Positions 6,788 through 39,968 of a stretch of DNA of 64,000 bases are shown piece after piece. The DNA is taken from the NCBI GenBank assembly GCA_028278205.1, contig JANQES010000094.1:17995-81994 (forward strand), written 5' to 3'. The stretch is from Rhodothermales bacterium. GTDB taxonomy: Bacteria; Bacteroidota; Rhodothermia; Rhodothermales; Bin80. Below the pieces are notes generated by a model. It was not told the DNA's origin, ran no database searches, and saw only the letters and a list, made by a program, of their open reading frames with translations. The position numbers and the translations under genes were made by a program. Every line of letters begins with the position of its first letter. Positions within the stretch are counted from its first letter, which is position 1.

Positions 6788-7111
6788 CTAATTGCTCCAA
6801 TCGCCCAGATCGCAGGCATCGCATGCAGGACAAGGTGAGCCGCCTGCGGCCTGCTCCAGGTCTGCCTCGCTCAACTCCTCCCCTGCCGAGACCGGAGCCG
6901 GCAACGCCGCCGCATAATCGTACCCCTGCGCGTCGAAAAACCTGATCGTGAAGCTCTCGGGCACGGCCACGCCCGTCTCCTGGCGGATGGCTGCGTGCGG
7001 ATCCTTCAGCGCCAGGGCGCGGAATTCGGGGTCGCTCGCCGCCCGATGAAGCACTGCTTCGATGGCGGCCTGGTGATCCTGTCCGGGCCGTTCGACTGAG
7101 TATCTGCTCAT
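6788..7111 (-). CDS. RiPP precursor peptide with NHLP-type (nitrile hydratase-like) leader and Cys/Asp-rich core
   Basis: 107 aa. Leader AASDPEFRALALKDPHAAIRQETGVAVPESFTIRFF...EELSEADLEQAAGG, then core SPCPACDACDLGDWSN. AGGAGG lies 7 nt upstream. The ATG overlaps the TGA of the upstream rSAM gene (ATGA). Confidence 0.8.
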   Translation of the reverse strand: MSRYSVERPGQDHQAAIEAVLHRAASDPEFRALALKDPHAAIRQETGVAVPESFTIRFFDAQGYDYAAALPAPVSAGEELSEADLEQAAGGSPCPACDACDLGDWSN

Positions 7112-7135
7112 GATGTACCTCCTTGTTTGAGTGAC
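7070..7135. repeat. Direct repeat copy 1 (rSAM 3-prime end plus precursor 5-prime end)
   Basis: See 6656-6721. The two copies are 414 bp apart. Confidence 0.85.
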
Positions 7136-8622: not shown

Positions 8623-8805
8623 AGGACGTGGGGATACGAACTTCGTGGAGAAAGGAAGCCGGCTACCGTCGTGTCGTCAAGATGTGTGCCAGAGATGATG
8701 CAGCGGCGGTGAGCGGCGCCTCCAGTCCGTCGTAGAGCCCGCTTTTTTAAACAGACGCGCCGGGGAACGATGCCCGGCAACCGAGCCGGCGCCCCCCGGC
8801 ATGCT

Positions 8806-8965
8806 GTTCCCTCCCTTCGTATTCCGCAGGGCTGTTAAGTGCTCTGAAAATGGTCGTTCGGCAACACCAACCAGTTTCCCCTCCTTTCGCAGGAGGGGAA
8901 CTTGAGATACCACGCCGAAGAGAACTTAACAGCCCTGCCCGCAGACGGGAACCAGGAGGGGAACT
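8806..8965. repeat. Nested inverted-repeat structure upstream of the rSAM operon
   Basis: Perfect 15-bp pair 8826-8840 / 8924-8938 encloses a 9-bp hairpin 8876-8884 / 8892-8900. An outer pair lies near 8806-8815 / 8956-8965. A direct repeat of about 49 bp sits at 8891-8939 and 8954-9003. Confidence 0.75.
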
Positions 8966-9117
8966 TGGACCGCTACCTCGAAGAGAACCCCGGCAGCCCT
9001 GCCTCGTAATCCGGATGAATAGAGCGAGACCTCGGAGAAGTAGAGCACGCTTTCGAGCATCGGAACCGGATGTTTATGTGTTCCCTTGAATTCTATTAGG
9101 AAGGTCGATTTTTCAAA

Positions 9118-9162
9118 GTCGGGACGGCGAGATTCGAACTCGCGACTCCTTCAACCCCATTG
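9118..9162 (-). repeat. tRNA-Pro 3-prime half fragment (att-like direct repeat)
   Basis: 45 nt match 25143-25187 (3-prime half of the intact tRNA-Pro) with 1 mismatch, in the same orientation. No 5-prime half or cloverleaf is present. Confidence 0.85.
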
Positions 9163-9254
9163 GTGTGACTATCGTGCTAGCATACGCTACAGGTCGCATT
9201 TCGGCGTCGTTTTGAGGATTTTTCGCCCCCCTATGCTAGCAAACGCAGGAGATA

Positions 9255-9292
9255 GCAGGGGGCGTACGTACACGTTGACGTACACCCCCTGC
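9255..9292 (-). terminator. Hairpin downstream of the caspase gene
   Basis: gcagggggcgtacgt / acgtacaccccctgc form a 15-bp stem (1 mismatch) with an 8-nt loop, 28 nt after the stop. No clear U tract. Confidence 0.4.
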
Positions 9293-9319
9293 CTGCCTCA
9301 AAGACTTGCTTCAGCATGA

Positions 9320-10219
9320 TCAGATCGTAAAAGGCTTCTCGGCGTCGAAGCTTAAATGGTCCGGCCCGATCACGTAGTGGTTGGGCTGTTGCTTTTCAGG
9401 CATCTTCGCGATGATCTCCTGGTAAAACGCCTCATAGTCCCCCTCGAAAGCTCCCTCGCCCCACACCTCTAACAGCGTAGCCGTAAACCGGCCATGGGGG
9501 ATGCTCGGGTGTTCCATGGAGTACTGGTCGTCCTGGCAGCCCGATATCAGCCGCACCCTGGCGTGCAACGACGAGGGGTTCTCCGGCAGGGCTTGCTGGA
9601 TGGCTACGTAGAACGGCGAGTTGTTCGTAAACGTCCGCACCGCTTCGGCGGGGGGCATGAACCGGCCCGCCGGCACTTCGCCTTCCGGCGCGTCGGGGTC
9701 TTTGGTTATCGTGCCGCTGTGGCAGCTGTCCGAGAGCACCAGCACACGCACGCCCTCGGCAAACTCGGCCCATAGCTCGTGCAGTTCGTCGTCGAGGATC
9801 TGGCCGTCGTAGAGGCACCAGGTCTCATCGATGTCGTCCTCCTCGTCGTCGTAGCCCTCTTCGTCGGGCACGGTGCCGCCATGGCCGGCGTAGGTGAGCA
9901 AGAAGCAATCGCCTGTTTTGAGCGAGCGGGCCGCGCTGCGGATGCCCTGGATCACGCCCTCACGCGTGGCAAAGTCGGACAAGAGCACGCTCGACCGGAA
10001 GCCTTGTGCGCTGGCAAGCCCGCGGAGCGCTTCGGCATCGGCATGGCAGTTGGGCAGGTAGCCGTCCCAGCCGCTGTAGTGATCGGGGTCCAACCAGTTG
10101 ACCCCGATGTGGAGGGCCAGGCCTTTGGGCCTGGCATCTGCGGGTTGCGCCTCGGCTTGTGCCGCCGGGGCATCGCTTAATTCCTGGGGCACTTGACGGC
10201 CCGTATCAGGTCCAGCCAT
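9320..10219 (-). CDS. Caspase-fold peptidase (C14 family)
   Basis: His/Cys dyad motifs LTYAGHGG and VLSDSCHSG. 299 aa with a low-complexity N-terminus MAGPDTGRQV. Confidence 0.85.
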   Translation of the reverse strand: MAGPDTGRQVPQELSDAPAAQAEAQPADARPKGLALHIGVNWLDPDHYSGWDGYLPNCHADAEALRGLASAQGFRSSVLLSDFATREGVIQGIRSAARSLKTGDCFLLTYAGHGGTVPDEEGYDDEEDDIDETWCLYDGQILDDELHELWAEFAEGVRVLVLSDSCHSGTITKDPDAPEGEVPAGRFMPPAEAVRTFTNNSPFYVAIQQALPENPSSLHARVRLISGCQDDQYSMEHPSIPHGRFTATLLEVWGEGAFEGDYEAFYQEIIAKMPEKQQPNHYVIGPDHLSFDAEKPFTI

Positions 10220-10286
10220 GAGTCTATTCGTTTTTGGGTGTGAAGGATGGAAGTCATAACGCGTGCGTTGACACCCGGCGCGTCGC

Positions 10287-13200
10287 TCAGGCGGACAGGG
10301 CCGGAGCCCAGGTTACAGGCAGCGCGCCGAGGGTTTGGAGGCCGGCCTCCGAAGAGAAGTAATTCAGGTGATGACACACCACGTCGAGCGTCTGCGGGGC
10401 CGGCTGCCGGACGCCGCCCACAGCCCCGATGCTCCGGCTGCTCACTGCGATGTCGTTGGGCTCGTCGTCGTACACGATACCCCCGACACCCACCGTGGCC
10501 TTTTCCAGCAGCCGCTTAAACCCGCCGCCTTGCACCTCGTAGTCGGTGATGTCTCCGGCGAGGATCGTGTAGGGAATGCCGGGGTCGTCGCTGCTGTTGA
10601 GGGTATTCAAGAACGTAGAGCCGGGGGTCATCTGGCCCAGCGTGACGGTCACCTCTTCGGCCCCTTTCAGGACGTTGAGCACGGTGCCGGCAAAGGGGAT
10701 CTGCTTCGTGATAAAGTTGATCGACAGGTTGAGCGCCGTGGAGACGAACTTCCGGTATTGTTCGATGGTGCCGAACTTGCTGCCGCCGTTGGGCGTGCCG
10801 GCCAGGATCAGGTGATCGACCACCTTGTTGCCCTCCTCCTGCTCGATGAACCAGCGGGAGACCAGCCCGCCCATCGAGTGAGCCAGGATGGTGAGATGCT
10901 TGCCGTCGTCTTCTGTGAGCCCGGCCAGGGCCAGCTCGCGCTTCAACGTCTGGGCGGTCTCTTCGATGGGAGTGTTGAGGTTTTCGTAGTCGTAGGTCAG
11001 CATCAGATCGAAACGGTCTTTGAGGCTCCGGCCCTCGGCGTCGCGGGCGTGGGGCAGTCCGGCGGCTATCGATTCGGTGTCGCCGATGATGCCGTGGATC
11101 GCCAGCAGGATGGTGTCGGCGGCGGCGACCTTTTCGTTCAGGCTCTCGCTGCGGCGTTCGACGCTGCCGTCTTCCTGGAAGTCCGCCCAGCAGAGCTTAT
11201 TGATGCGGTCGGTCTCTTGCTTGAGCGCCACCTTGAAGAAAGCCATCTTGAGCGCCTTGAACAGGCTCCGGTCCTGCGGTTCCTCGCCGAAGGGATTGAC
11301 GGCCTGCCCGCCGTCGGTGAGTACCGGCTCGACGTCGGGCAAGGCGCGGATGCGGACGACGGTTTCACCCTCTTCGACCGCGGAATCGCCGATGACGACG
11401 AAGTTTTGCCCGTCGAAGGCGATGGGCAGCAGCATCGCGTCGTTGTCGTCCGCGCCGGGCAGGACGATTTCGAGCGGGTCGTCGAAGAGCGCCGCCGGAT
11501 CGTCGATCTCCAGGTTGCTGAGTTCCACCACGTTCTGCGCGCCGAGATCGCGGTGGCTGCTGAAGTTCATCATCTGGAAGGCCGGGTCGTCGAAGAGCGC
11601 GAAGCGGTTGGCCGGGTCGGTGCTGCGCGTGCCGGTCTGGGCCGCGCCGAGGTTGACTTTTGCGCGGACGCCGGCGTGCGGCCGGATGCGCAACGCGCCG
11701 CCGGCCAGGCTCACCTCGTTGGCGGCCTGGACCTCATCGACCTGCCGGACCATCGTCACCCGGATCGTCCGGCTGGCCCAGGCATCGAAGACCTTTTGCG
11801 GGGCAAACGCGCCGAACGTCGCCCGCGACCCGCCCAGGCCGTCCTGGAGAAGCTGGATGTAGTCCAACTCTTCGGTCGTGACGAACAGCTTGAAATAGAC
11901 GGTGGCCTCTTGCTCGTCTTCGTTGAGGCCCCACCCCATAATGCCATCCGGCATCCCCTTCATCAGCGGGAATATGGCCTGGCCCTCGTGTTCGCCGGGC
12001 CTGAAGACGATCTCGCCCTCGTCGCACTGGATGCTGTAGTCGTTGTTGAGCAGCAGTAGATAGAAATAAAGCTCCTGCGTGGCGCTGGTCTTGACGACAG
12101 GCTTGAAGCCCATCAAGTCGGCCTTCGCGTCCGCATTCCAGAACGTGTTCTCCTTGGAAGCATACAGCTTGATCTCCGGCCCGGTGAAGGTGCCCTGAGA
12201 CACCGGCCCTCTATCACCTGCCTCGAAAACCTCCACGTCGAAGTCGAACATATTCTCGATCCGCGAATCAGGGTTTTCCAACGCCACCGTCCGCTCCCAG
12301 CGCGCAATGCGGCCCAGGCTTTGGAGGATGAGTTGGGCTAATTTGGCCGTGTACGCACCCTGGTCAGGCCCCTCTTCGAGGTGTTCCTGATGGATTTTCC
12401 GCCTGCTTTCCACGTCGCGGATGATGAACGCGCCGTCTTGCGCTTCTACTTCCACCTCCGGCTGCTCGTCGCCGTCGCGGGTCTCTACGTAGAGGACGTT
12501 TTTCGAGCGGTCCCAGTGTTCTTTGAGCAGGTCCACACCCGCCACGTCGCCGTGAATCCAGACGTATTTGGGCGGTGCGGGTAAATGATGGAGGACGCCT
12601 TGATAGGTCTTCTTGGGTTCCAACGCGGCGTCCGCCGGTAGCGCGAGCGGGCTGCGCTGCGCACCGACACGGGTGATGGTGGCCTGGGCGACGACTTGCT
12701 TGTCGGGTGCCGGCCCCCGGACTTCGACTTCGAGGGGTTTCTCCGCCTGCGTAGGCAGGCCGTGGATGGCGCCGCACTTGACGTACCAGGCGTCGCTGCC
12801 CGCGTCGTGGTAGACCTCGTAGGTGTCCGGGTCGCCCAGGGGCTCGCCGCTCAGGAAGCGGGTGTAGGGGTTGAAGCTGCCGATGGTCTCGAACTGCGGC
12901 GTCTGGTTCTTGCCGATCCGTTTGGCCGAAGCGCGGGTGCGGACGAAGAGGTCGGCGTAGTTGATGGCGCCGTTGGCGCTGCCCAGCGCGCGCATCAGGC
13001 TGCTGGTGAAGATGCCGCCGAAGGGCTTGTCGCCCGCCTTCTGGACGCTCTCGCAGGCCGAAAACAGGACGTGTTTGGACAGGGGGACGTGCAGCGCCTC
13101 GCCCTGCCGGGCATAGTAGCCGTCGAGATACGAAGCCAGGGGCCGCGCGTCGCCGCCACGAGCCGGGACGTTGCGCGTCCGGAACAGCGGATCGTCGCCG

Positions 13201-13682
13201 AGGTCGCGGGTGCCGGAGCCGGAGTGGCAGCAATCCAGCGAGACGACCAGGTGCGGCCCCGACGCCTTCTCGGAACCATCGGGAAACTGCGTCTCCACCT
13301 CGTGCAGCAGGGCGGCCAGTTCTTTGTCGGCCAGGTGGAGGCCGTCGGGGCGGCTGTCGAAGCAAACCAGCGTCTGGTCTTTGCCGTTGGGTTCTAGCTT
13401 GAGGAATTCCTCGGCGGTGGGTTCTTCGGAACCGTGGCCGCTGAAATGAAAGAAGGCCACGTCGTCCGCGCCGGCCCGGCACAGGTGCTCGCGGAAGCCT
13501 TTGACGAGGTTGGCGTAGGTGGCATTTTCGTTTTCGAGCCGGTGGATGAAAAGCTCGCCCTCGCCGAACTGACCGCGGAGGAATTTTTCAACCTTGTCGA
13601 TGTCGAAGATGCAACCGTTGAGCGTAGAGACGGGCGCCGGGTAGGTGTTGATGCCGACGAGGAAAGCGTATAGGCGTTTCAT
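10287..13682 (-). CDS. Caspase-fold peptidase fused to a C-terminal alpha/beta-hydrolase (lipase/esterase-like) domain
   Basis: ATG at 13682 (MKRLYAFLVGINTY). FHFSGHGS and SLDCCHSGSG dyad at the N-terminus. C-terminus has LAIHGIIGD, nucleophile elbow ILAHSMGGLV, and LAGTPNGGS. About 550 aa of unassigned middle region. Confidence 0.85.
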   Translation of the reverse strand: MKRLYAFLVGINTYPAPVSTLNGCIFDIDKVEKFLRGQFGEGELFIHRLENENATYANLVKGFREHLCRAGADDVAFFHFSGHGSEEPTAEEFLKLEPNGKDQTLVCFDSRPDGLHLADKELAALLHEVETQFPDGSEKASGPHLVVSLDCCHSGSGTRDLGDDPLFRTRNVPARGGDARPLASYLDGYYARQGEALHVPLSKHVLFSACESVQKAGDKPFGGIFTSSLMRALGSANGAINYADLFVRTRASAKRIGKNQTPQFETIGSFNPYTRFLSGEPLGDPDTYEVYHDAGSDAWYVKCGAIHGLPTQAEKPLEVEVRGPAPDKQVVAQATITRVGAQRSPLALPADAALEPKKTYQGVLHHLPAPPKYVWIHGDVAGVDLLKEHWDRSKNVLYVETRDGDEQPEVEVEAQDGAFIIRDVESRRKIHQEHLEEGPDQGAYTAKLAQLILQSLGRIARWERTVALENPDSRIENMFDFDVEVFEAGDRGPVSQGTFTGPEIKLYASKENTFWNADAKADLMGFKPVVKTSATQELYFYLLLLNNDYSIQCDEGEIVFRPGEHEGQAIFPLMKGMPDGIMGWGLNEDEQEATVYFKLFVTTEELDYIQLLQDGLGGSRATFGAFAPQKVFDAWASRTIRVTMVRQVDEVQAANEVSLAGGALRIRPHAGVRAKVNLGAAQTGTRSTDPANRFALFDDPAFQMMNFSSHRDLGAQNVVELSNLEIDDPAALFDDPLEIVLPGADDNDAMLLPIAFDGQNFVVIGDSAVEEGETVVRIRALPDVEPVLTDGGQAVNPFGEEPQDRSLFKALKMAFFKVALKQETDRINKLCWADFQEDGSVERRSESLNEKVAAADTILLAIHGIIGDTESIAAGLPHARDAEGRSLKDRFDLMLTYDYENLNTPIEETAQTLKRELALAGLTEDDGKHLTILAHSMGGLVSRWFIEQEEGNKVVDHLILAGTPNGGSKFGTIEQYRKFVSTALNLSINFITKQIPFAGTVLNVLKGAEEVTVTLGQMTPGSTFLNTLNSSDDPGIPYTILAGDITDYEVQGGGFKRLLEKATVGVGGIVYDDEPNDIAVSSRSIGAVGGVRQPAPQTLDVVCHHLNYFSSEAGLQTLGALPVTWAPALSA

Positions 13683-13841
13683 GATAATTCGTTGTAGGTT
13701 GGTTAAAGAATAAATCCCGTCGAGGAAGGGCTGTGCAATGAACACAGGTTGGAGCCGCGCCCGGCCTGTCACAGTCGCGCTTTACCTATCTATGCCTAAA
13801 ACAGCACGGAATTTTTCATACCCTCGAAAAAAAGAGGGCAC
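13683..13841 (-). promoter_or_regulatory. Promoter/5-prime-UTR module copy A (upstream of the caspase-lipase gene)
   Basis: Alignable along its whole length, up to the ATG, with 21509-21670. Conserved core GAGGGYATGAAAAATTCCGYRCTGTTTTAGGCATRGATAGGTAAAG. Possible TTCCGY-N17-TAGGTA promoter. Confidence 0.55.
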
Positions 13842-13878
13842 TTGCATGGAGGTCTTCGTATTGCGTTCAGAAAGGCAC

Positions 13879-15315
13879 CTACGACAACACTTCGACGCCT
13901 GGAAGCAAGTCTTCCAAAATGGCAAACCGTACGCGTGTGCGTTCCTGGCTTTCGTCGTTATTCGAAATCAGGCCGCGCCGTACCTGCTTTTTGACCCTTT
14001 TCAGCGTTGCCTGGTGCGAGGTAACGTCATTATAGAGGTCCTCGTCTCTATCCTTCAGACCGGTTTCAAGCAAGTCGAGCGCCTGTTCGAGTTTATCCGA
14101 GGCGACGAGTTGCCGGATCTCTTCGACGGCGTCCTGCTTTCCAGGGCTGGGCATTGTGCTTGAGGGCCGGCGTGCGGAGGGTTGGGGTGCGCGGGACGGG
14201 GTCAGTTGCGGCGCGAAGAGGGTGCCGTCGGGCGAGCGCATAAACAGCACGGGTGTGGCCCATTCTACGGAGTCGTCCAGGCAGATCGCCACGCGGCCCT
14301 CGGCCACGGCCTCATCCACCGAAACGCCGAGCGCCAGTTGTCTATAGATCTCTCCGGCAAACGTGATCGCGGCGGTGTCGGTGATGGGAAACTGCATCGC
14401 CACCACCGCCGGGATGCCTTCCATCACCAGCGCCGAGGCCACCCCCGCGAACGGGTCGAGGTGGTCGGTTTTGGTGCTCTGGGCCGTCTGACACGCATTC
14501 AAGAAGACCAGGCGCACGCCGGTGCCGCGCAGCGCAACCCGGAGCTGATCCCCGCTCACCTTCAACTGACAACCCTGCTCATCCTCCATCAACAAGACCC
14601 CCTCTCCGGTGTTCGCGTCGAAGGTGCCGTGGCCCGAATAGTGCAAGACGTGAAACGGCTGCGCTTTGAGCCGGGCGCGTAAGGCTTGCAACGTGGTGCC
14701 CTGGACGACCTCGACTGCGACGTGCTGCGTATCCTGCCAGCTCGCTTCGATCTTTTGTCGCTCTGCCTCCAGGTTGAGCGCGTCGGTGCCGGGCGGGTTG
14801 GCCAGCACCACGAGGATGCGCAGTGGCGGCGCGAACGGCGGCGGATCTTCGGGGCGCATCACGTCGAGGTAGCGCACGACCGGGGTCTGGCTGTTGAGGT
14901 TCAGGTATTCGTTCTTCTCCGGGTCGTAGAGGAGTTCCCAGGGGAGGTTCGCCAGGAGAGCATGGTCCGGCTGGTTCAGGTCGAGGTGGAGCTTGATGCG
15001 CAGCCCACCTTTGCCGTAGACCCGGCCTCGGCTCTCGGAGAACGCCGTGCCCACCGGCCCGGTGAACAGCGCCTCGAAGAGCCGGGTGCCTACCGCGCGC
15101 GGCGAGAGATCCTGGGTGAAGATCGGCGCAAACGTGCCGCGATACCGCCCCAGCGCAGCCAGGACGCCCTCGGCTTCGCCGGGCGCGTAGGGAAGCTGGA
15201 GCGGTGAGGTGGACGTTTGGCCGGCGGGAGACTGTATAACCTGGACGGTGAAGCGCCCTTCGGCCTGGGCCTCCATCTGAATGGAGAAGTCTTCGTAGCG
15301 GATCATGGTGTTCAT
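13879..15315 (-). CDS. CHAT-domain protease with C-terminal helical adaptor-like (EAD-like) module
   Basis: LPWELLYD, HVLHYSGHG and LVFLNACQT (CHAT His/Cys). The last 85 aa align with the C-terminus of the SIR2-like protein. Confidence 0.85.
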   Translation of the reverse strand: MNTMIRYEDFSIQMEAQAEGRFTVQVIQSPAGQTSTSPLQLPYAPGEAEGVLAALGRYRGTFAPIFTQDLSPRAVGTRLFEALFTGPVGTAFSESRGRVYGKGGLRIKLHLDLNQPDHALLANLPWELLYDPEKNEYLNLNSQTPVVRYLDVMRPEDPPPFAPPLRILVVLANPPGTDALNLEAERQKIEASWQDTQHVAVEVVQGTTLQALRARLKAQPFHVLHYSGHGTFDANTGEGVLLMEDEQGCQLKVSGDQLRVALRGTGVRLVFLNACQTAQSTKTDHLDPFAGVASALVMEGIPAVVAMQFPITDTAAITFAGEIYRQLALGVSVDEAVAEGRVAICLDDSVEWATPVLFMRSPDGTLFAPQLTPSRAPQPSARRPSSTMPSPGKQDAVEEIRQLVASDKLEQALDLLETGLKDRDEDLYNDVTSHQATLKRVKKQVRRGLISNNDESQERTRVRFAILEDLLPGVEVLS

Positions 15316-15349
15316 GAGGACTGGGGTAAGGGGCTCTTCTATTGGGGAT

Positions 15350-17197
15350 TCACTGGCTGGCCGTTAACTGCTCGGTGGATTGCCCGGAGGCTTCCTTTAG
15401 CACTGAATTGAGGCTATCCTTTATCGAGCGCAAGCGTTCGATTTCTTTCTTCTTAACCTCCACGAGGCTGTCATTCCTGGCTTGCTCATAGATGATAACA
15501 TCTTGTTCTAATCCTTTAATTTTCAGATTTTTTTCTTCAATCTTTAAGGCCATGATACTATCTGCTGCATCCTTAACGAGGCCGCCTTCCTCAGCTTGCC
15601 GATAGATGATGGTGTCTTGTACTAATACGCCAATACTTGTTTTGATTTCGCCAATCTGTGCACCTAAGGATGCCTGCAAATGCTCTCTAGCCATTTGATA
15701 GTTCTCCTCAGCTTCTTGTGTCGCTCGTTTGGCAGAATTGTAATAGAAGCCGACGAACACCAGCGCGATTAAGGCGATGCCAGCTAAGATATAGGCGAGG
15801 CGGCGTCCCTGGACGGCTTTAACCCGAAGCGCAGCTTCCTCCTTCGCTTTGGCCAGGGCCTCCTCGGCCCGTCGCTCAGCTTCGCGGCGTTCAGCTTCCG
15901 CTTGCCTGTGCAGGGCTTCCTGTTCGCGGCGTCGTTCTTCGGCCTGGCGGGCGTGTTTGGCCTCCAGGATGGGCTCCACCAGCGTATCGTGGCTCAACTC
16001 GTAGGTGTAGCCGCCGCTCATGTTGGGCTCGGCCCGCAGCAGGTGGTGTTTGTTGACCAGCAAGCTCAGGATCTCATCGGAGATCCCTTTACCGTGGATG
16101 ATGCCTTCGTAGAGCGAGATCCGCCGCTTGTCCGGCTCGAAGATCAGGTCTTCCTCGATCAGCTTGCGCACGGTGAGGCGTTCCTCATCGGTGGGTATCT
16201 CGTCCAGCATGGCGTCGTAGTAGCGCCGGTAGATCCGGCTGAGGTCGCCCAGGTCGTCGGGGCGAACCTGGGGGATGCCGGCCTGATTTCGCTGCCTGAC
16301 GGCGCCGTCCTCAACCAGGTGTTCGGCGTGCTGGCAGATGATCTGGAGCTGGGTGGTCTCGATGGTAGCCTGGCCGCCGCCGGAGAGAAAATTGAGGATG
16401 AAATCGAGCGCCTCATCGGTGTAGTCGAAGCGCTGGACGGCAAAGTCGGAGTCGTTGTGATAGGCCGGGTTGAGGATGGCGTCTTCGGCTTGAAGACGGG
16501 TCAGCGGTTTGAGTTGATAGGTTTTGTGGAGGATATCCGGCAGGTGGTCTTTGAGTTCGTCGAGGAAGCTCATGCGGTCGGAGCGGATGGCGAAGACCAC
16601 TTTGAGGTTGAGCGGCTGGAAGAGGGCTTCCTGTTCGGCGGCGTCGAGGGTTACGGCCTGGCGTTCGAGCACCGCGCGGACGGGCTTGGGGATCCGTTCG
16701 TAGAGCGCCTGGGCCAGTTGGGCGGCAAAGGCCTTAATCTGAGCCGGAGGGTAGGTGAAGAGCTCTTCGAACTGATCCAGAATCAGCAGCAGGGGCTGAT
16801 CGGGGTGAAGGCCCTGCACCGACTTCAGGGCTTGCCAGAGCGGAACCGCTTCGCCGAAGCGGCCGGTCCAGTCGCCGGCCCGGCCCAGGGCGCGGAGGCG
16901 TTCCAACACGTTTTGCAGGGGCGTGTGTGCATCGCCGGCCTCGGTGTAGCTGCCGAAGCGGAGCGGCACGGCAAAGACCCCGGCGCGCCCGCCTTCACGA
17001 GATTCTTGCAGCCGGGGGACCACAGCGGCATTGAGCAGCGAGCTTTTGCCGAGGCCGGATTTGGCATAGAGTACCACCATCTGCTCCAGCCTGATCTTTT
17101 CGACCAGGCGGCGGGTGTCTTCTTCGCGCCCGTAGAAGATACGGCGGTCGTTCGGGGTAAAGGGCTGGGCGCCGGGATAACGATAAGCTGTGCTCAT
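15350..17197 (-). CDS. STAND-type P-loop NTPase (nSTAND-like) with coiled coil, one TM helix and a C-terminal tail
   Basis: YPGAQPF..IFYGREEDT, Walker A AKSGLGKSS, Walker B LLLILDQFEELF, FAIRSD. Then a charged coiled coil, the TM helix LAYILAGIALIALVFVGFYY, and a 129-aa AT-richer tail. Confidence 0.85.
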   Translation of the reverse strand: MSTAYRYPGAQPFTPNDRRIFYGREEDTRRLVEKIRLEQMVVLYAKSGLGKSSLLNAAVVPRLQESREGGRAGVFAVPLRFGSYTEAGDAHTPLQNVLERLRALGRAGDWTGRFGEAVPLWQALKSVQGLHPDQPLLLILDQFEELFTYPPAQIKAFAAQLAQALYERIPKPVRAVLERQAVTLDAAEQEALFQPLNLKVVFAIRSDRMSFLDELKDHLPDILHKTYQLKPLTRLQAEDAILNPAYHNDSDFAVQRFDYTDEALDFILNFLSGGGQATIETTQLQIICQHAEHLVEDGAVRQRNQAGIPQVRPDDLGDLSRIYRRYYDAMLDEIPTDEERLTVRKLIEEDLIFEPDKRRISLYEGIIHGKGISDEILSLLVNKHHLLRAEPNMSGGYTYELSHDTLVEPILEAKHARQAEERRREQEALHRQAEAERREAERRAEEALAKAKEEAALRVKAVQGRRLAYILAGIALIALVFVGFYYNSAKRATQEAEENYQMAREHLQASLGAQIGEIKTSIGVLVQDTIIYRQAEEGGLVKDAADSIMALKIEEKNLKIKGLEQDVIIYEQARNDSLVEVKKKEIERLRSIKDSLNSVLKEASGQSTEQLTASQ

Positions 17198-18282
17198 ACC
17201 AGTTCCTCGTTAAGACTCAGTAGATTAAATCGTAGCTTGGCGCGTGAGGCAGAAGCTTCCTCTTCCGTGACGATACCCTGCCGCTCCTTACGCTTCTGGC
17301 GCGAGAGCCGGCCACTGAGACTGATCGCCTCGTCGAGGAATTCGTCCTCGCCGATGTCTTCGAAGTGATCGGTCAAGAAGGCCAGCGCATCTTCCAGGCG
17401 ATCCTGCTCCACCATTTGCTTGACCCGCTCGGAGGGTCCGGCTCCCGCTGCCGGGTCGGGCCGGAGCAGGCCGGCGGCGGCGCATTGCGTGTGCAGTTGG
17501 TCTATGAACGCCCGCACGCCTTCCTGGTCGCGGATGATGCGGATGTCGAACTCGCCATCGAGCACATTCATCACCGCCTGGTCTACCTCGGTCTGCTCCG
17601 GCACCCAGGTGTAGGCCACGTGGCTGTCGTTGATGCTCCGGATGAGCCGTAGCAAGAGTTGCACGTACCACTTCTCGAACTGAAAGCCCAGGAAGACAAA
17701 GTAGCGCGCCCGTTGCAACGCAGCCTTGAGACTGGAGCCAAGCTCGCGAGCCCCGAGGATCGATTTGATGTATTCGAAGAGGTCAGCGTGGGTGAGGATC
17801 AGCGATTCCTCGTCTTCGATGCAGCCGAAGAGGTCGTAGAGCAGCGGCCGGTCGGCGGTGGGGGCGTCCATCTCCGCCCCGCAGCGCTTCATATGATAGA
17901 ACCCATAGTTGAACAGATAGGGGATCTCCAGGCGGGGAAAGGTCTGCCTGGGATTGAGGTAGGGAGAGAAGGAAAGCAGCAAGTGCAGTTGTATCGAGGC
18001 CAGCTTACGCAAGAGATCCGGCACGAGGGGATGTTTTTTCAACTGGTCTTTGAGCGTGAAGTAGCTCTCGTTCTGGGCCGAGCGTTTGCCGAAGAGGAAG
18101 AGTTCGTCGTGCTTGTAGTAGGCCAGCAGGTTGCGCTCGTGCTCCTGCCGGATCGTTTCCATCAGGTACGGATGCAGCGGGCGACTCTCGCCGTCTACAT
18201 CGATCTCCAGCATGTTCGGCCCCAGGAGGACAACGCATTTGTCCTCTCGGATGGCTTGAAGAAGGTGGTCCCAGTTAATCAT
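17194..18282 (-). CDS. SIR2_2-like (divergent) domain protein with C-terminal helical adaptor-like module
   Basis: Motif order resembles the SIR2_2 family (VVLLGPNM, LLLSFSPY, LLYDLFGC, LILTHADLFEY, FVFLGFQFEKW), but the expected catalytic positions look substituted. Its TGA overlaps the NTPase ATG. Confidence 0.6.
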   Translation of the reverse strand: MINWDHLLQAIREDKCVVLLGPNMLEIDVDGESRPLHPYLMETIRQEHERNLLAYYKHDELFLFGKRSAQNESYFTLKDQLKKHPLVPDLLRKLASIQLHLLLSFSPYLNPRQTFPRLEIPYLFNYGFYHMKRCGAEMDAPTADRPLLYDLFGCIEDEESLILTHADLFEYIKSILGARELGSSLKAALQRARYFVFLGFQFEKWYVQLLLRLIRSINDSHVAYTWVPEQTEVDQAVMNVLDGEFDIRIIRDQEGVRAFIDQLHTQCAAAGLLRPDPAAGAGPSERVKQMVEQDRLEDALAFLTDHFEDIGEDEFLDEAISLSGRLSRQKRKERQGIVTEEEASASRAKLRFNLLSLNEELV

Positions 18283-18335
18283 CGTAGTTGGGTTTTATTG
18301 AGCGCGCCGGGGCACGGGTTTGAAAAGACAGGAGA

Positions 18336-21218
18336 TTACTGCTTCGGTTCGGGCGGCACGAGCATTTCTCCCCGGTCGTTGATGTAAAACATCAGGTTAT
18401 GCTCGGCCACGTAGACCCGGGCAACCCGCTCGTCGTTCTTGTCATGGAAGGGCGTCACGGCGTCGTAGCGGGCCTCGATGGGGTCATAACTATCGCGGTT
18501 TTTATCCCAGCGCATGAAGCCCCATTTGCCCTTTTGTTTAACCAGGAGCAAGTTGGAACTGGAATCGTTGGAACCGGAATCAGCGGAGATACCGTAACCG
18601 ATCTGCTCATAGTCACAGGGTAGGAAACGGAGGGTATCCGTCTTCGCCCCGTCGGAGCCGTTCGCCGCGAAGGCCACGAAGCCCTTGCGGTTGCCTTGCC
18701 AGGTGAGATACATGCGACTTCCGACGTACGCCAGACTGTCGTACTCCGGTGAAAGGACCACCTCCCCGGCAGCATTGATCAGGCCGACTTTGCCGTTTCT
18801 CTCTACCTGCGCGAGCCCCTCGAAAAAGGGCGCTACCCTATCAAAGAGATACATCGGGTCAACGACTTCGAGGCCGTGCTTGTCGATCACGCCCCATAGA
18901 CCGACAACGAGGCTGTCCTGGTCGTTCACTTCTATGCTGTCTCTCTTCACCCAGGCGAGCCCCTCGGAGAAATCCCTTATCTGATCATACTGCGGTTTGA
19001 CGATGTTAAACGGTTCGGCGACGATGTCGCCCTGATTGTTGATAAAACTCCATTGATCCTCTCCCTTCACCAAAGCGAACCCCTCGGAGAAATCCCTTAC
19101 CTCATCATAGCCATTCGTCGGGTCGACGACGAATTTGCCCTGCTGGTTGATTGCGCCCCATTGGCCGTCTCTCTTCACCCAGGCGAGCCCCTCGGAGAAA
19201 TCCCTTACGTCATCATACCCATTCGTCGGATCGACGACGAGGCTGTTCTTGTTGATAAAGCCGTATTTCTTTGTGCTGTCTTGGTACACCCAGGCGAGCC
19301 CCTCGGAAAAAGGCCCTACCCTATCAAAGCCGTACTGCGGATCGACGACGAATTTGCCCTGCTGGTTGATCACGCCCCATAGGCTGCCCTGGCGCACCCA
19401 GGAGAGCCCCTTGGCACGCCCTACCCTATCAAAGTCATACTTCGGGGCAACGACAATGCCGTCCTGGTTGATGTCGACGACGACGCTGCTGTCCTGGTTG
19501 ATAAAGTCGTATTCTGTGCTGTCTTGGCGCACCCAGGCGAGCACCTCGAAGAAGCGCCCTGCCCTATCAAACTCAAGTTCCAGATTGACGACGAGGCTGC
19601 CCCGCTGGTTGATCACACCCCATTGGCCGTCTCTCTTCACCCAGGCGAGACCCTCGGAGAACGCCCTTACCTCATCATACCCATTCGTCGGATCGACGAC
19701 GAGGCTGCCCTGCTGATTGATCACGCCCCATTGGCCGTCTCTCTCCACCCAGGCGAGCTCTTTGGAGAAGCGCTCTACCCTATCAAACGCATGATCCAGT
19801 TTGACGACTTCGACGCCCAGCGTGTCGATCACGCCCCATAGGCCGGCCCTCTGCACCCAGGCGAGACCCTCGGAAAAGGGTTCTACCTCATCAAACGCAT
19901 GATCCAGTTTGACGACTTCGACGCCCAGCGTGTCGATCACGCCCCATAGGCCGGCCCTCTGCACCCAGGCAAGCCCTGAGGAGAACTCTCTTACCTCATC
20001 AAACTCATGTTTCAGATTGACGACGAGGCTGCCCTGCTGGTTGATCACGCCCCATCGGCCGGCCCTCTGCACCCAGGCAAGCCCTGAGGAGAAGCGCCTT
20101 GCCCTATCAAAGTCATGCTTCGGGTCGACGACGAATTTGCCCTGCTGATTGATCACGCCCCATAGACCGACGTTGAGGCTGACCTGGTTGATCACTTTTT
20201 TGCTGTTTTTGCGCACCCAGGCAAGCCCCTCGGAAAAGGACCCTACGTAACTAATATGTTCCAGTTTGACGATGAGGCTGTCCTGCTGGTTGATCACGCC
20301 CCATTGGCCGTCTCTCTTCACCCAGGCAAGCCCCTCGGAGAACGCCCTTTCATGTTTCAGATTGACGACGGGGCTATCCTGCTGGGAGAAGTGCTCTTCT
20401 TTATCAAACAGCGGTTTGACGATGCGGACACTCTGCTGGCGGTACGGTTTGCGCGACACGAAATCAGGCCTATCCACTTCATTCTTTTTGCATCCCTTTG
20501 CGTCGAATGCGGAAACTACAGGCTCTTTGGCCTTGTCTGGAATCCCCCCATAGTAGTTGAATGTATCTGTAACATTGCTATCCGATAATACTGCGGAGTG
20601 CAGCCAATTGTAGCTTTCGCTTTTTTGCTGCTCTTCACAGTCACACGCGCGTCCTTGTGTACACACCAACCAGTACTTATCCTCACTTTGTGCAATGGCT
20701 ATGCCCTTCCAGAAGCCTTTGGGGTCTTCCCAAAGAAAATCTCCATAACGCTGCCCCGCTGTGTCTATCACCGCAAACTTTTTATTCTTAATACTATACG
20801 CCCACGAGAAATTTTCCTCGCTGCCTTCTTCAAAAAAATATTCTTTCATATCAGCGAGGAGCCTGGCGATTTCTTTCTTTTTTTTTCTGAGTTCTTCGGA
20901 AAGGTCAGCTTGATGCATCTCATATTTGATTCCACCGAAAAGATGATCATTCATCCTTTCAGCGACCGCCTTTGCGCTGTCCGGTCTATACCGCGCTGCC
21001 GCCTGATACTTGTGGATCGCTTGCTCGTATTTCCGTCTCTCCACTAAGTTATCGGCATCGGACATCAGGCGCTTGTAGGTCGTGCCTTCTTCGGTCGTCT
21101 CTGCGTACTGCGTGTCAGCCTGAGCAACGATATCCGATTGTGCCCGTGTGACCTGGGGGTAACTGCCGGCCAGGATTAACGCAGCGAGGAGCGCGATGGG
21201 GTAGCGGCGTGCGTTCAT
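18336..21218 (-). CDS. Secreted WG-repeat (KWG-type) protein, about 17-19 repeats
   Basis: Signal peptide MNARRYPIALLAALILAGSYPQVTRAQS. Repeated unit F(S/D)EGLAWV.RDGQWGVINQQG..VV with a period of about 36 aa. The N-terminal region of about 230 aa is AT-richer. Confidence 0.85.
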   Translation of the reverse strand: MNARRYPIALLAALILAGSYPQVTRAQSDIVAQADTQYAETTEEGTTYKRLMSDADNLVERRKYEQAIHKYQAAARYRPDSAKAVAERMNDHLFGGIKYEMHQADLSEELRKKKKEIARLLADMKEYFFEEGSEENFSWAYSIKNKKFAVIDTAGQRYGDFLWEDPKGFWKGIAIAQSEDKYWLVCTQGRACDCEEQQKSESYNWLHSAVLSDSNVTDTFNYYGGIPDKAKEPVVSAFDAKGCKKNEVDRPDFVSRKPYRQQSVRIVKPLFDKEEHFSQQDSPVVNLKHERAFSEGLAWVKRDGQWGVINQQDSLIVKLEHISYVGSFSEGLAWVRKNSKKVINQVSLNVGLWGVINQQGKFVVDPKHDFDRARRFSSGLAWVQRAGRWGVINQQGSLVVNLKHEFDEVREFSSGLAWVQRAGLWGVIDTLGVEVVKLDHAFDEVEPFSEGLAWVQRAGLWGVIDTLGVEVVKLDHAFDRVERFSKELAWVERDGQWGVINQQGSLVVDPTNGYDEVRAFSEGLAWVKRDGQWGVINQRGSLVVNLELEFDRAGRFFEVLAWVRQDSTEYDFINQDSSVVVDINQDGIVVAPKYDFDRVGRAKGLSWVRQGSLWGVINQQGKFVVDPQYGFDRVGPFSEGLAWVYQDSTKKYGFINKNSLVVDPTNGYDDVRDFSEGLAWVKRDGQWGAINQQGKFVVDPTNGYDEVRDFSEGFALVKGEDQWSFINNQGDIVAEPFNIVKPQYDQIRDFSEGLAWVKRDSIEVNDQDSLVVGLWGVIDKHGLEVVDPMYLFDRVAPFFEGLAQVERNGKVGLINAAGEVVLSPEYDSLAYVGSRMYLTWQGNRKGFVAFAANGSDGAKTDTLRFLPCDYEQIGYGISADSGSNDSSSNLLLVKQKGKWGFMRWDKNRDSYDPIEARYDAVTPFHDKNDERVARVYVAEHNLMFYINDRGEMLVPPEPKQ
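19784..19970. repeat. Recent tandem duplication inside the WG-repeat gene
   Basis: The 79 bp at 19784-19862 are identical to 19892-19970 (period 108 bp, or 36 codons). Confidence 0.9.
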
Positions 21219-21403
21219 GATCTCACCTGTCGTATTAATGCATTCAAGAAAAGACTACCGCATGGTTTGATTGAAAAGAGAGGAAGCCCGGTGTCTTGGC
21301 CCACACCCCCGACGCAAGCGAATACCTCGCGTCAGGGCTGCGGGCCGTACACACCTGTCAGAAACCCCAGGTCCTACTTAAGCCGGCGCCAGTGTTTCTG
21401 CCG

Positions 21404-21508
21404 TTACGAGGGGGGCGCAGCGCGTCCGCGGTCAGGGCCTGCGCGTCCGTGGTCGGGGCCTGCGCGTCCGTGGTCGGGGCCTGCGCGTCCGTGGTCGGGT
21501 CCAGCCAT
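21404..21508 (-). CDS. Possible small ORF, 34 aa, heptad-repeat peptide MAGPDHGRA(GPDHGRA)x2 GPDRGRAAPPS
   Basis: ATG at 21508 with GGAGGT 7 nt upstream. Coding is uncertain and this may be a gene remnant. The first codons and upstream bases resemble the caspase gene start at 10219. Confidence 0.3.
   Translation of the reverse strand: MAGPDHGRAGPDHGRAGPDHGRAGPDRGRAAPPS
21420..21502. repeat. 21-bp tandem repeat, about 4 copies
   Basis: The unit gcgcgtccg(c/t)ggtc(a/g)gggcct repeats at 21420, 21441, 21462 and 21483. Confidence 0.9.
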
Positions 21509-21670
21509 GATTGATACCTCCTTTTGGATTGTTTAAGGAAAGATCCCTTCGAGAAAGGGCGCTGAGATGAAAACAGATTGAGGCCACACACGGCCTGCCA
21601 CAGTCACCCTTTACCTATCCATGCCTAAAACAGTGCGGAATTTTTCATGCCCTCGCAAAAAAGTGGGCGA
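21509..21670 (-). promoter_or_regulatory. Promoter/5-prime-UTR module copy B (upstream of the small ORF and WG operon)
   Basis: Paralog of 13683-13841, with the same spacing to the downstream ATG. Confidence 0.55.
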
Positions 21671-21862
21671 AAGACTTTTAACTCTAACGGGTGTTCGGGA
21701 AAAGAAGAAGCCCTTAAATCATTAAAAATATTAATCGGGTAGGAGACGGGGATGACTTGAAAAGAGGATGGCTGCCCTGTCTTCCAAGATTTATATCCCG
21801 AACTCCTGTTAACGCTATCACGAAGGGCGTCAAAAGCCCCGCCGGTTGCCTGTTTTTTGGAG

Positions 21863-24721
<2,859 letters not shown>

Positions 24722-25082
24722 GGCAGGCAAGGGCTGCCGGTGTGCGTCGAGGTCAATGGGGACACGGCCTGAGCACTTCAGCGCATTGGGGGGGTGCGGC
24801 TCTACTGGTAAACAATAAAACGAGCAAACTCTTAGAAAACAAGATCAAATGAGAAAAAACCCAAAAAACGAGACCACCCGCTACAGCATACCTTGTTTTT
24901 CCTCAGCGGCAGGCCGGGGCGCAGCCTCCGGCGTGTCCATCGCGGCGAAGTGTTCGAGCCCGTTTCCAGCTCGAATGCTTCCTGGCCATCAACCTGATGG
25001 GACATGATGTGCGGGTGCGTATCAGGTGCATTTTCCTGGACAGATCTGGACTGAGCCCTCAAAATTCACTATTTCAACAACA

Positions 25083-25128
25083 AAACCCCCTCAAAAGGCC
25101 ACTAATGACCTTTTTAAGGGGGTTTTTG
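25083..25128 (-). terminator. Hairpin terminator downstream of tRNA-Pro
   Basis: aaaaccccct...agggggtttt outer stem with inner aaaagg/cctttt pairing. Followed by a T-rich run on the minus strand. Confidence 0.5.
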
Positions 25129-25143
25129 GCCTTGAAAGCCCTG

Positions 25144-25217
25144 TCGGGACGGCGAGATTCGAACTCGCGACCCCTTCAACCCCATTGAAGTGCGCTACCT
25201 GGCTGCGCTACGTCCCG
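25144..25217 (-). tRNA. tRNA-Pro (anticodon GGG)
   Basis: Manual cloverleaf: acceptor CGGGACG/CGTCCCG, D arm GCGC-AGCCAGGTA-GCGC, anticodon arm CTTCA-ATGGGGT-TGAAG, T arm GCGAG-TTCGAAT-CTCGC, discriminator A. 74 nt, CCA not encoded. Confidence 0.9.
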
Positions 25218-25243
25218 AACCCGGTGTTATACTTAAAAAGAAT

Positions 25244-25576
25244 CTAAGGGATTCGCTTTAAAAGGTTCTCTAAAAAACCGCGAAGCTCTAGAAGTTCCCT
25301 CCGCTGCTCGGTGAGCGGGATGCGTTGCCCGTCGCTGCGGTCCAGCACTTGTTTGGCGCCCTCAATGGTGTATTTATCCACCCGCAGCAGGTGCTGTATC
25401 CGCTCGACCACGGCGATGTCTTCGACCGTGTAAATGCGCCGGCCTGCCCGGTTTTTGCGGGGTTTGAGGTGTTCGAACTCGGTCTCCCAGTAGCGCAGCA
25501 CGTGCGCTTCCAGGCCCATCATCTCGCTGACCTCGCCGATTGAGTAATAGAGTTTTTTGATGCCTTCGGCAGCCAT
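25244..25576 (-). CDS. MerR-family transcriptional regulator
   Basis: N-terminal HTH YSIGEVSEMMGLEAHVLRYWETEF..RKNRAGRRIYT. Confidence 0.85.
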   Translation of the reverse strand: MAAEGIKKLYYSIGEVSEMMGLEAHVLRYWETEFEHLKPRKNRAGRRIYTVEDIAVVERIQHLLRVDKYTIEGAKQVLDRSDGQRIPLTEQRRELLELRGFLENLLKRIP

Positions 25577-25694
25577 CGAACCGGGGTGGGCTCATGCGAA
25601 TTGCTTCGGAATTGGGGGGAAACTACGAAAAGCTGAGTGAAACGTGAAATCGAAATGGAAAGGGGGACACGAGCCGAAGGCGACTGACGCCAGT

Positions 25695-25751
25695 AAAGGG
25701 AGAGAGGGGGAAAGGGGGATAAATGAATTTTTCTCCCTTTCCCCCTCTCTC
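25695..25751. repeat. Intergenic word-hairpin (GGGAGAGAGGGGG words)
   Basis: aaagggagagagggggaaaggggga pairs with tctccctttccccctctctc. Lies between the divergent MerR and EamA genes. Confidence 0.8.
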
Positions 25752-25833
25752 GCTCTCGCCCTCTCCCAATAGAAAGCCTACATACCTAAAAACGCTCTAT
25801 ATTGGCCCCTCATTCGCCCAGAGCCACCCGCCC

Positions 25834-26754
25834 ATGCCCCGCTCGTCCGACATCAAAAACGATCTCGCGCTGCTGTTCGTCATCCTGGTGTGGGGCTTTA
25901 ATTTTCCCATCATCAAGGCGGTGCTGGCGCTGATGCATCCGCACGCGATGAACGTCTTCCGGCTGTGGGCGGCGGCGCTGGCCCTCGGCGCGCTGCATTA
26001 CGTGTATCAGAAAAGAGCTGGCGAAGCGTTCTTTGCACCGCTGCGCACGCACGGATGGCGCCTCTTCGGCCTGGGGCTCATCGGGTATCTGTTCTACCAG
26101 TTCTGCTTCATCGTCGGCGTAGACAACACGACGGCGGGCAGCGCGGCACTGATCATGGCAAGCGCGCCGCTGTGGACAGCCGTCTTCGGGCACTTCCTCC
26201 GGTTCGACACGCTTCGCCCGCTGGCCTGGATCGGGCTGCTGATCACGTTCGCAGGCGCCGTCGTCATCGTCGTCGGCGGCACGAAAGCCATCGACTTCGG
26301 CGACACGACCTTCTTCGGCAACGTGGTGATGACGGTGGCCGCCGTCTTCTGGGGCGCCTACACCGTCCTCAGCAAACCCTTGACGCGCCAGCTCAGCCCC
26401 GTCGCCATCACCTTTCTGGGCCTGCTCTTCGCCCTGCCTTTCCTGACAATGCTTGCCATCCCCTACTTCGACTCTGTGGAATGGAACCGCCTCAACGGAT
26501 GGATCTGGGTGGCGATTATCTTTTCGGGCAGCCTCTCTACCGGGCTCACCGTCGTCATCTGGAACAACTCCGTCAAAAACGTCGGGCCGTCGCACACGGC
26601 GGTTTACGGCAACCTCGTGCCCTTCGTGGCGCTCTTCAGCGGCGCCTGGCTGCTCGCCGAGCCGATCCTGCTGGCCCAACTCGCCGGCGGCGTGCTGATC
26701 CTCGGCGGCCTCTTCGTGATGCGACGTACGCGGCAGAAGGTGCTGAGTGGGTAG
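25834..26754 (+). CDS. EamA/DMT-family transporter
   Basis: Ten hydrophobic helices and two EamA-like halves (FVILVWGFNFPIIK, AVFWGAYTVLSK). ATG at 25834. Confidence 0.85.
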   Translation: MPRSSDIKNDLALLFVILVWGFNFPIIKAVLALMHPHAMNVFRLWAAALALGALHYVYQKRAGEAFFAPLRTHGWRLFGLGLIGYLFYQFCFIVGVDNTTAGSAALIMASAPLWTAVFGHFLRFDTLRPLAWIGLLITFAGAVVIVVGGTKAIDFGDTTFFGNVVMTVAAVFWGAYTVLSKPLTRQLSPVAITFLGLLFALPFLTMLAIPYFDSVEWNRLNGWIWVAIIFSGSLSTGLTVVIWNNSVKNVGPSHTAVYGNLVPFVALFSGAWLLAEPILLAQLAGGVLILGGLFVMRRTRQKVLSG

Positions 26755-39897: not shown

Positions 39898-39968
39898 AGT
39901 TGCTTTTCGCTACCGGTGCCCGGTGAATATGCGTAAGATAAGGCAAAAAACGAGGATTTGGCTTTCAG

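Follow-up and report, generated by a model that had tools for sequence, protein, structure and literature searches.

The stretch of DNA analyzed here (the window) comprises 64,000 nt of contig JANQES010000094.1 from a Rhodothermales bacterium, and its minus strand carries all relevant genes of a defense-type island that houses two copies, A and B, of a non-coding module of about 160 bp. Read along that strand, the order is kinase-TPR, copy B, a 34-codon open reading frame (ORF), a spacer, WG, SIR2-EAD11, nSTAND1, CHAT-EAD11, copy A, caspase-DUF7379 and caspase (Table 1). Both copies of the module are intergenic and co-oriented with the genes, and each abuts the first start codon of its gene block.

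Table 1. Features of the island locus, in window positions.
Feature	Position	Strand	Description
Module copy A	13683-13841	-	Non-coding; fills most of the 196-nt gap from the CHAT-EAD11 stop (13879) to the caspase-DUF7379 ATG (13682)
Module copy B	21509-21670	-	Non-coding; ends at the ATG (21508) of the 34-codon ORF upstream of the WG-repeat gene
5′ core, copy A	13762-13826	-	Columns 16-80, 89% identical to copy B; TTCCGT 13811-13806, TAGGTA 13788-13783
5′ core, copy B	21591-21655	-	Highly conserved; contains TTCCGC and TAGGTA (21617-21612)
Short 5′-edge hairpin, T-rich loop, copy A	13820-13839	-	GCCCTC-TTTTTTTC-GAGGGT; stem in both minimum free energy and centroid structures
5′-edge hairpin counterpart, copy B	21649-21668	-	GCCCAC-TTTTTTGC-GAGGGC
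Mini-ORF, copy A	13796-13819	-	ATG AAA AAT TCC GTG CTG TTT TAG, MKNSVLF*, seven codons; putative, read from sequence
Mini-ORF, copy B	21625-21648	-	Conserved as MKNSALF*; putative, read from sequence
GGCC-N6-GGCY hairpin/palindrome, copy A	13753-13766	-	Just 3′ of the core
GGCC-N6-GGCY counterpart, copy B	21582-21595	-	Flagged as terminator-like in scan
Shine-Dalgarno-like AAGGAGGT, copy B	21516-21523	-	7 nt upstream of the small-ORF ATG; aligned position in copy A is ACAACGAATT
Small ORF, 34 codons	21404-21508	-	MA(GPDHGRA)x4-like, MAGPDHGRAGPDHGRAGPDHGRAGPDRGRAAPPS; headed by copy B
Long GC-rich hairpin	21298-21346	-	~20 bp stem; in the spacer between small ORF and WG gene
Ser/Thr protein kinase + TPR protein	21863-24730	-	Upstream of copy B; start codon uncertain
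WG-repeat protein	18336-21218	-	960 aa, 11 WG_beta_rep stretches
SIR2_2 + EAD11 protein	17194-18282	-	Pfam, 7e-14
nSTAND1 NTPase	15350-17197	-	Pfam, 5e-29
CHAT + EAD11 protein	13879-15315	-	Pfam, 1e-15; last gene before copy A
Caspase (Peptidase_C14) + DUF7379 alpha/beta-hydrolase-like protein	10287-13682	-	1131 aa, headed by copy A
Second caspase-domain protein	9320-10219	-	299 aa, 67 nt downstream of the caspase-DUF7379 gene
tRNA-Pro(GGG)	25143-25217	-	3′ end (25143-25192) is the island boundary repeat (family D11)
Distal att-like copy of the tRNA-Pro 3′ end	9118-9167	-	45 nt at 97.8% identity

The duplicated module is real and statistically secure. The minus-strand segments 13841-13683 and 21670-21509 align end to end, with one 1-nt gap and with 3′ ends that differ in length by 4 nt, and in BLASTN of each copy with its flanks against the whole window 157-158 nt were aligned at 79.6-79.7% identity (E 1e-34 to 3e-35). 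For either copy the other was the sole match in the 64 kb, all remaining matches having E > 0.1. A repeat search recovered the two copies as a direct repeat of 143 nt without gaps (13697-13839 versus 21526-21668; family D8) with 80% identity and a spacing of 7,829 nt, and a 40-nt core pattern had 2 matches in the window versus 0 in 100 shuffles. With an nhmmer profile built from the pair, no third copy appeared in the window when the cutoff was relaxed to E < 100. The BLASTN, repeat-search and shuffled-pattern results thus bear out the whole-length alignment of two ~160-bp minus-strand stretches that a sequence-only reading of this DNA had reported. On re-reading the sequences, its core consensus and module coordinates were also correct, as were its positions for TAGGTA and the location of TTCCGY 17 nt upstream of that hexamer. 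The mismatches between the copies comprise 19 transitions and 14 transversions, with all types represented, and the longest identical runs are 13 nt. The GC (guanine plus cytosine) content of the module is 44-51% versus 60% for the window, and that of segment 13760-13841 is 0.49 versus 0.60.

With respect to its boundaries, the module shows no similarity common to copies A and B upstream of alignment column 1, and on the other side the similarity ends at the ATG in both copies, the codons beyond being unrelated. From copy B to the kinase stop (21863) there are another 192 nt of AT-rich spacer, unrelated in sequence. The duplication history proposed in the sequence-only reading is therefore upheld for the module itself and not for its flanks, as neither BLASTN nor the repeat search found the coding DNA alongside to be duplicated. 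For copy A, non-coding status depends on the start assigned to the caspase-DUF7379 gene. In the public gene call (P0001, 1161 aa) the start is placed at GTG 13772, within copy A. When 34 family members are aligned, however, their shared N-terminus reads MMKxLYALLVGIN and fits the ATG at 13682, for a protein of 1131 aa. Judged by this alignment, the true start is ATG 13682 and not GTG 13772, and because the family N-terminus fits the former, copy A is read as non-coding. The 34 homologues likewise confirm the start codon of what had been called the caspase-lipase gene as the point at which copy A ends. No opposite-strand ORF common to both copies was found on reading the two sequences, and this result, together with the family N-terminus, rules out a coding explanation for the module.

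Conservation within the module is uneven. Specifically, 69 of 78 positions are identical in alignment columns 3-80 (88%), as compared to 56 of 79 (71%) in columns 81-159 (Fisher p = 0.009), a difference that disfavors uniform neutral decay of a duplicate. Recent gene conversion or ongoing homologous recombination is disfavored as well, because the longest identical runs are so short. RecA-mediated exchange generally needs roughly 20-30 bp of identity, and present-day recombination between the copies is therefore unlikely. In addition to the elements listed in Table 1, the module contains a direct repeat, nTAGGnAnAG, present twice 10 nt apart (by inspection), and a palindrome, CTGTG(A/G)CAG. 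No U-tail follows the 5′-edge hairpin, and substitutions between copies A and B in the GGCC-N6-GGCY hairpin sit in the loop or stay wobble-compatible. Inspection of 11 other upstream regions of the window revealed no common motif, and nothing usable was found in the literature on the promoter type of the host.

In terms of RNA structure, the analysis of folding and covariation that had been suggested for the 5′ untranslated region (UTR) gave no significant conserved structure. Single-sequence folding z-scores of the copies were -0.07 and +1.25, no better than shuffles. The pairwise structure conservation index (SCI) was 0.60 versus 0.56 for column shuffles (27% of shuffles as good, p ~0.27; two sequences afford little power), and the alifold energy gave z = -0.57. 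The antisense strand was worse, and neither half of the module alone was significant. Rfam returned tRNA-Pro only at the gathering threshold, and at E <= 10 both module regions gave nothing relevant. The fold z-scores, the comparison of SCI with shuffles and the Rfam search thus provide no support for the leader-RNA option of the sequence-only reading. One helix (columns 33-38/82-87) does keep its pairing through one compensatory and two wobble-compatible changes, which is anecdotal with two sequences, and it competes with the local GGCC-N6-GGCY hairpin. Overall, the module looks like constrained primary sequence rather than structured RNA.

The setting of the two copies is a genuine island. 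The 3′ 45-50 nt of tRNA-Pro(GGG) recur at 9118-9167 in the same orientation (25143-25187 versus 9118-9162, 45 nt, 97.8%), and these repeats bracket 16,025 bp holding the whole kinase/WG/SIR2/nSTAND1/CHAT/caspase cluster and both copies of the module. Because the tRNA-Pro 3′ end recurs in this way as an att-like direct repeat at the distal boundary, the island label used in the sequence-only reading is justified. No integrase or recombinase domain was detected when the large ORFs of the island were scanned against Pfam, and only small ORFs lie between 24730 and 25143; the island may therefore be a decayed element. Its gene content matches the nSTAND1/EAD conflict systems, in that an nSTAND1 NTPase occurs with operon-encoded effectors having one EAD in common.

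Related loci provide a rationale for linking the two gene blocks that the module heads. CHAT homologues (30-42% identical) neighbor caspase-DUF7379 genes in 12 of 82 related loci, several of them directly adjacent; in L026 the CHAT match begins ~10 nt past the end of the caspase-DUF7379 match. A CHAT gene 34-42% identical to that of the island CHAT-EAD11 protein stands beside caspase-DUF7379 in L026, L027, L035, L036, L040, L053 and L019, and the hosts of such neighbors are phylogenetically scattered, with Variovorax, Sulfotelmatobacter, Sphingomonadaceae, Schlesneria and Kuenenia among them. This distribution suggests that CHAT and caspase-DUF7379 form a conserved two-gene module, with the reverse gene order in this island, and that the two gene blocks of the island are plausibly one functional system. 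In the relatives, adjacency in one operon would give co-expression, and from this adjacency a need for co-expression of the two island blocks is plausible.

To assess whether leaders are repeated within related loci, a 350-nt segment taken from upstream of the caspase-DUF7379 gene was compared with its own locus in each of 78 loci. Eight loci gave intra-locus matches. Four were examined, of which L027, L029 and L047 proved to be coding sequence and L073 non-coding; the matches in L037, L038, L055, L071 and L072 were short repeats or lay downstream of the gene. In L073, from a cyanobacterium, the caspase-DUF7379 ATG and a second caspase gene are each preceded by 66 nt of leader that are 79% identical between the two (copies at 4931-4996 and 9936-10000), and the two downstream proteins are only 25% identical. 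This leader of ~65 nt (ACTGCATAAGTT...CTATAAC.ATGTAAC...) is conserved across Rivularia/Calothrix orthologues and is also found in L069, L071, L074, L077 and L082, just upstream of position 10001. As judged from these sequences, the case is an independent analogue and shows that leaders of caspase-DUF7379 genes can be conserved and re-used within a locus.

Searches for further copies, which the sequence-only reading had proposed, were run in the window and in public collections, and they yielded the two copies in the 64 kb and only three probable chance matches (JGI) outside it. There were 0 exact matches to AAATTCCGNNCTGTTTTAGGCAT in GTDB species genomes and JGI metagenomes and 0 exact matches to two module motifs in viral contigs, and BLASTN at a distant setting found no match to the module in plasmids or phages. 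Among the 78 related caspase-DUF7379 loci, which were drawn from GTDB (L007-L086), neither nhmmer nor BLASTN gave a significant module homologue. The contigs of homologues P0002, P0003, P0292 and P0253 have neighborhoods different from that of the island. The best caspase-DUF7379 homologue is 51% identical and the best WG-protein homologues are 26-31% identical; with the closest homologues of the flanking proteins so divergent, non-coding DNA is not alignable, and the databases hold no orthologous leader that could be aligned.

The three JGI matches (L087-L089, 39-45% GC) are to a 21-nt sub-motif, TTTTAGGCATNGATAGGTAAAG. They show no similarity to the module upstream and only marginal similarity downstream (best L087, p = 0.0025 uncorrected over 8 tests); L087 has no ORF > 89 aa, and L088 and L089 are one internally repetitive sequence. 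Given the low GC, the absent or repetitive ORF content and the lack of convincing extended similarity, we judged these matches to be due to chance and rejected them as homologues of the module. As a separate observation, positions 60-109 of L087 (JGI24699J35502_11022751, 45% GC) read TTTTAGGCATAGATAGGTAAAG and, shortly downstream, CAGGCCCGGTGTGGCC, which resembles CAGGCCGTGTGTGGCC of the module. In the Kuenenia locus, L019, positions 3286-3311 hold GGCAGGAAAAATTCCGC, a 17-nt near-match to GGCATGAAAAATTCCGC of the module located 41 nt upstream of the caspase-DUF7379 ATG. It is a near-palindrome, GCGGAA-N3-TTCCGC. The match occurs once, 1 versus 0.03 expected; this may be coincidence and was not used as evidence. 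Finally, two Logan contigs of run SRR20820740 match the window at 100% identity and break to the left and right of the copy A core, L001 at its end (13874) and L090 at its start (13743). The 130 nt missing between them could be due to low coverage, or to additional near-identical copies or variants present in the sample.

Because the module is duplicated, non-coding and co-oriented with the genes, abuts start codons, and lies in a genuine island whose two halves are plausibly one system, shared cis-regulation would be the most economical reading. Specifically, we propose, with a probability of roughly 0.55, that the two copies represent one duplicated cis-regulatory region acting on the DNA level, composed of a promoter/operator and a leader, which would place both blocks under common control. 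The AT-richer core of ~65 bp would probably serve as a binding site for RNA polymerase and/or a regulator, and would be followed by a less constrained leader of ~90 nt reaching the start codon. Copy B would head the small-ORF/WG/SIR2-EAD11/nSTAND1/CHAT-EAD11 block and copy A the caspase-DUF7379 and caspase block, such that both parts of the STAND-NTPase conflict system would answer the same signal. The promoter/operator role, the transcription start site and the co-regulation of the two blocks are features that we infer from sequence, and we likewise infer that the blocks are 'two transcription units'. The step from shared cis-elements to co-regulation, made in the sequence-only reading, holds up as far as a duplicated non-coding module at the first start codon of each block is concerned, and is not supported for a specific promoter or a leader RNA.

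Several observations weigh against this proposal, beginning with the promoter itself. The earlier candidate, TTCCGY-N17-TAGGTA, matches TTGACA/TATAAT at 4 of 12 positions; the spacing is right (17 nt), and the -10 element ends in A and not T. A consensus scan of 9000-26000 found no sigma-70-like site in either copy, and on these grounds the candidate was not sustained. No sigma-54 motif was seen on inspection of the module, and the Bacteroidota-type -7 motif TAnnTTTG is absent from both copies; in the window this motif has 10 matches versus 10.5 expected, and is thus not enriched. The Pfam scan of the island's large ORFs also lacked any DNA-binding regulator domain. Moreover, copy A begins just 38 nt past the CHAT stop codon, and no canonical terminator was found between the two; copy A could be an internal operon element acting at the RNA level, and in the absence of a terminator there may be read-through from the upstream block into the caspase-DUF7379 gene. 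A shared upstream module was confirmed in only 1 of 78 related loci, and is thus not a general trait. Lastly, a comparison of n = 2 sequences does not allow selection to be separated rigorously from a gene-conversion tract.

Some of these same observations would fit a cis-acting leader that functions as RNA, be it an attenuator with a mini-ORF and alternative helices, a 5′ UTR bound by a protein or small RNA, or a processing or stability element. Transcription would then begin upstream of the core or, for copy A, read through from the CHAT gene, consistent with the lack of a terminator at that point. The similarity does extend fully to the start codon, an ATG...TAG mini-ORF is conserved within the most conserved block, the helix of columns 33-38/82-87 keeps its pairing and competes with the GGCC-N6-GGCY hairpin, and two hairpin-plus-T-rich sites in copy B were flagged as terminator-like. 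The structural tests nonetheless speak against this explanation, as thermodynamic stability does not exceed that of shuffles, SCI and alifold energy equal those of column shuffles on both strands, and Rfam has no match. In addition, these are short hairpins, not all of them equally strong in the two copies, and the translation-initiation region is the least conserved part (AAGGAGGT in copy B versus ACAACGAATT in copy A). We consider an RNA-level leader unlikely. Another reading is slightly more improbable still, namely that the module is an undescribed leader dedicated to the nSTAND1/EAD11 island, either an attenuator-like RNA or the operator of an unknown regulator. Through MKNS(V/A)LF and the competing helices (33-38/82-87 versus GGCC-N6-GGCY) it would silence and then jointly fire the sensor/NTPase and caspase-lipase blocks, with the Shine-Dalgarno-like sequence of copy B and the repeat-peptide ORF as a second, translation-coupled layer.

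A different type of explanation is that the duplication is a neutral scar of island assembly and any regulatory sharing incidental. For instance, recombination at a leader that was already there may have brought in the 7.8-kb WG-to-CHAT block, or the genes downstream may have been replaced after a tandem duplication. Direct repeats 7,829 nt apart that bracket exactly one gene block, both within a mobile island with att repeats, would fit such a history, and the gene order differs from that of relatives, where CHAT follows caspase-DUF7379. Purifying selection is also not demonstrable, as no homologue was found elsewhere. A scar should nevertheless decay uniformly, whereas identity here drops from 88% in the core to 71% in the 3′ part, and it would have to account for a duplication confined to non-coding DNA that on one side ends exactly at start codons, with no coding sequence co-duplicated. 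Even a scar 5′ of a gene, moreover, still serves as the upstream region of that gene. On balance, we view a purely neutral origin as possible, if doubtful. The break in the Logan contigs around the copy A core could point to a dispersed intergenic repeat, similar to repetitive extragenic palindromes (REP) or miniature inverted-repeat transposable elements (MITE), that by chance occurs twice in the island, as assemblers often break at repeats. Copies A and B, however, share no exact run > 13 nt, and cannot themselves cause a break at k = 31. There are only two copies in the 64 kb searched of the 86.8-kb source contig, both within the island and both in the same orientation and in the same register to the start codon, and the aligned ends have no terminal inverted repeats or target-site duplications, nor is there an inverted repeat at the module. 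Together with the lack of genome, plasmid, phage and viral matches, the JGI matches being three in number and probably chance, this makes a dispersed repeat very improbable. Further candidate classes were rejected as well. A template/variable repeat (TR/VR) pair of a diversity-generating retroelement is disfavored by mismatches of all types, the 5′ non-coding position of the copies and the lack of a reverse transcriptase domain in Pfam scans of the island's large ORFs, and an integron attC site or invertible promoter by the mismatch spectrum, the orientation and the failure to find a reverse transcriptase or recombinase.

Building on the proposed role in shared cis-regulation, the module can be compared with known systems. 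The kind of feature is familiar, a cis-regulatory region re-used within a gene cluster, and this example is new. Like the shared promoter/operator regions of co-regulated operons, the module consists of co-oriented non-coding segments 5′ of neighboring, linked gene blocks, with a conserved AT-richer core and a looser leader; unlike them, it has no recognizable -35/-10 elements, known operator motif or cognate regulator, and its conserved stretch of ~160 nt to the ATG is longer than a typical operator plus promoter. The cyanobacterial leader described above precedes the same gene family and is, in L073, repeated before a second gene, but it has no sequence similarity to the island module, and both genes downstream of it are caspase paralogues, whereas copy B heads an unrelated small ORF and the WG/NTPase block. 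Riboswitch and attenuator leaders (Rfam cis-regulatory families) resemble the module in having a long 5′ leader to the start codon, small hairpins, T-rich tracts and a mini-ORF, and differ in that the module lacks an Rfam match, excess stability and a conserved-structure signal. At the protein level, the closest counterparts are the STAND-NTPase/EAD conflict systems of Kaur, Burroughs, Iyer and Aravind, in which nSTAND1 is a novel STAND clade and EAD effectors are encoded in the same operon (PMC8195603). The island shares with these an nSTAND1 NTPase, CHAT-EAD11 and SIR2-EAD11 proteins, caspase-domain proteins and a Ser/Thr kinase. The published work covers protein domains and not promoters or shared non-coding leaders (0 occurrences of 'promoter' in PMC8195603), and this scope places the duplicated module outside the published description.

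How bacterial STAND-NTPase/EAD 'apoptosis-like' conflict systems are silenced and switched on is poorly understood, published descriptions being centered on proteins. If shared cis-regulation is correct, an element common to the sensor/NTPase and caspase-lipase effector blocks would be a concrete handle on their control, and the 65-bp core would help to show how toxic effectors are coordinated with sensors. The general significance is limited by the fact that the element is known from a single island of an uncultured Rhodothermales-like bacterium, with no relatives found.

The small ORF below copy B is built on a 21-bp tandem repeat (4.1 copies, 21412-21499; family D10) and has no called-gene record in the collection searched. 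A Shine-Dalgarno-like motif is missing at 21 of 24 gene starts inspected in the window, and among the three starts that have one, AAGGAGGT of copy B stands out as much the strongest, the other two showing just a 4-nt GAGG match. The 185-nt spacer that leads from the small ORF to the WG gene folds with z = -2.26. The hairpin that it contains could be a terminator or attenuator that sets the WG operon apart from the small ORF.

The host is Rhodothermales-like, as the best matches of PtsI to named organisms are from Rhodothermales and Rhodocaloribacter, at 59-64% identity; relatives at 77-90% identity are present as short contigs only. Outside the island, the radical-SAM/SPASM gene at 7108-8622 (region 6800-8826) has relatives at 89% nucleotide identity in ENA metagenomes (L004-L006). 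In these relatives, tandem small paralogous ORFs follow the gene and C39-peptidase/ABC exporters precede it, as in a cluster for ribosomally synthesized and post-translationally modified peptides (RiPP-like). Synteny of the relatives with the window is lost at ~8826, ~290 nt before the island att repeat. Two odd short-period repeat arrays occupy other intergenic regions of the window, at 39898-40047 and 49936-50085. One is of the CGTA(C/T)TGCGTA/GCAATACGCA type and lies upstream of ptsI; the other consists of opposed GGATTTT/CCAAAAT arrays that flank a terminator-like hairpin upstream of a 527-aa ORF.

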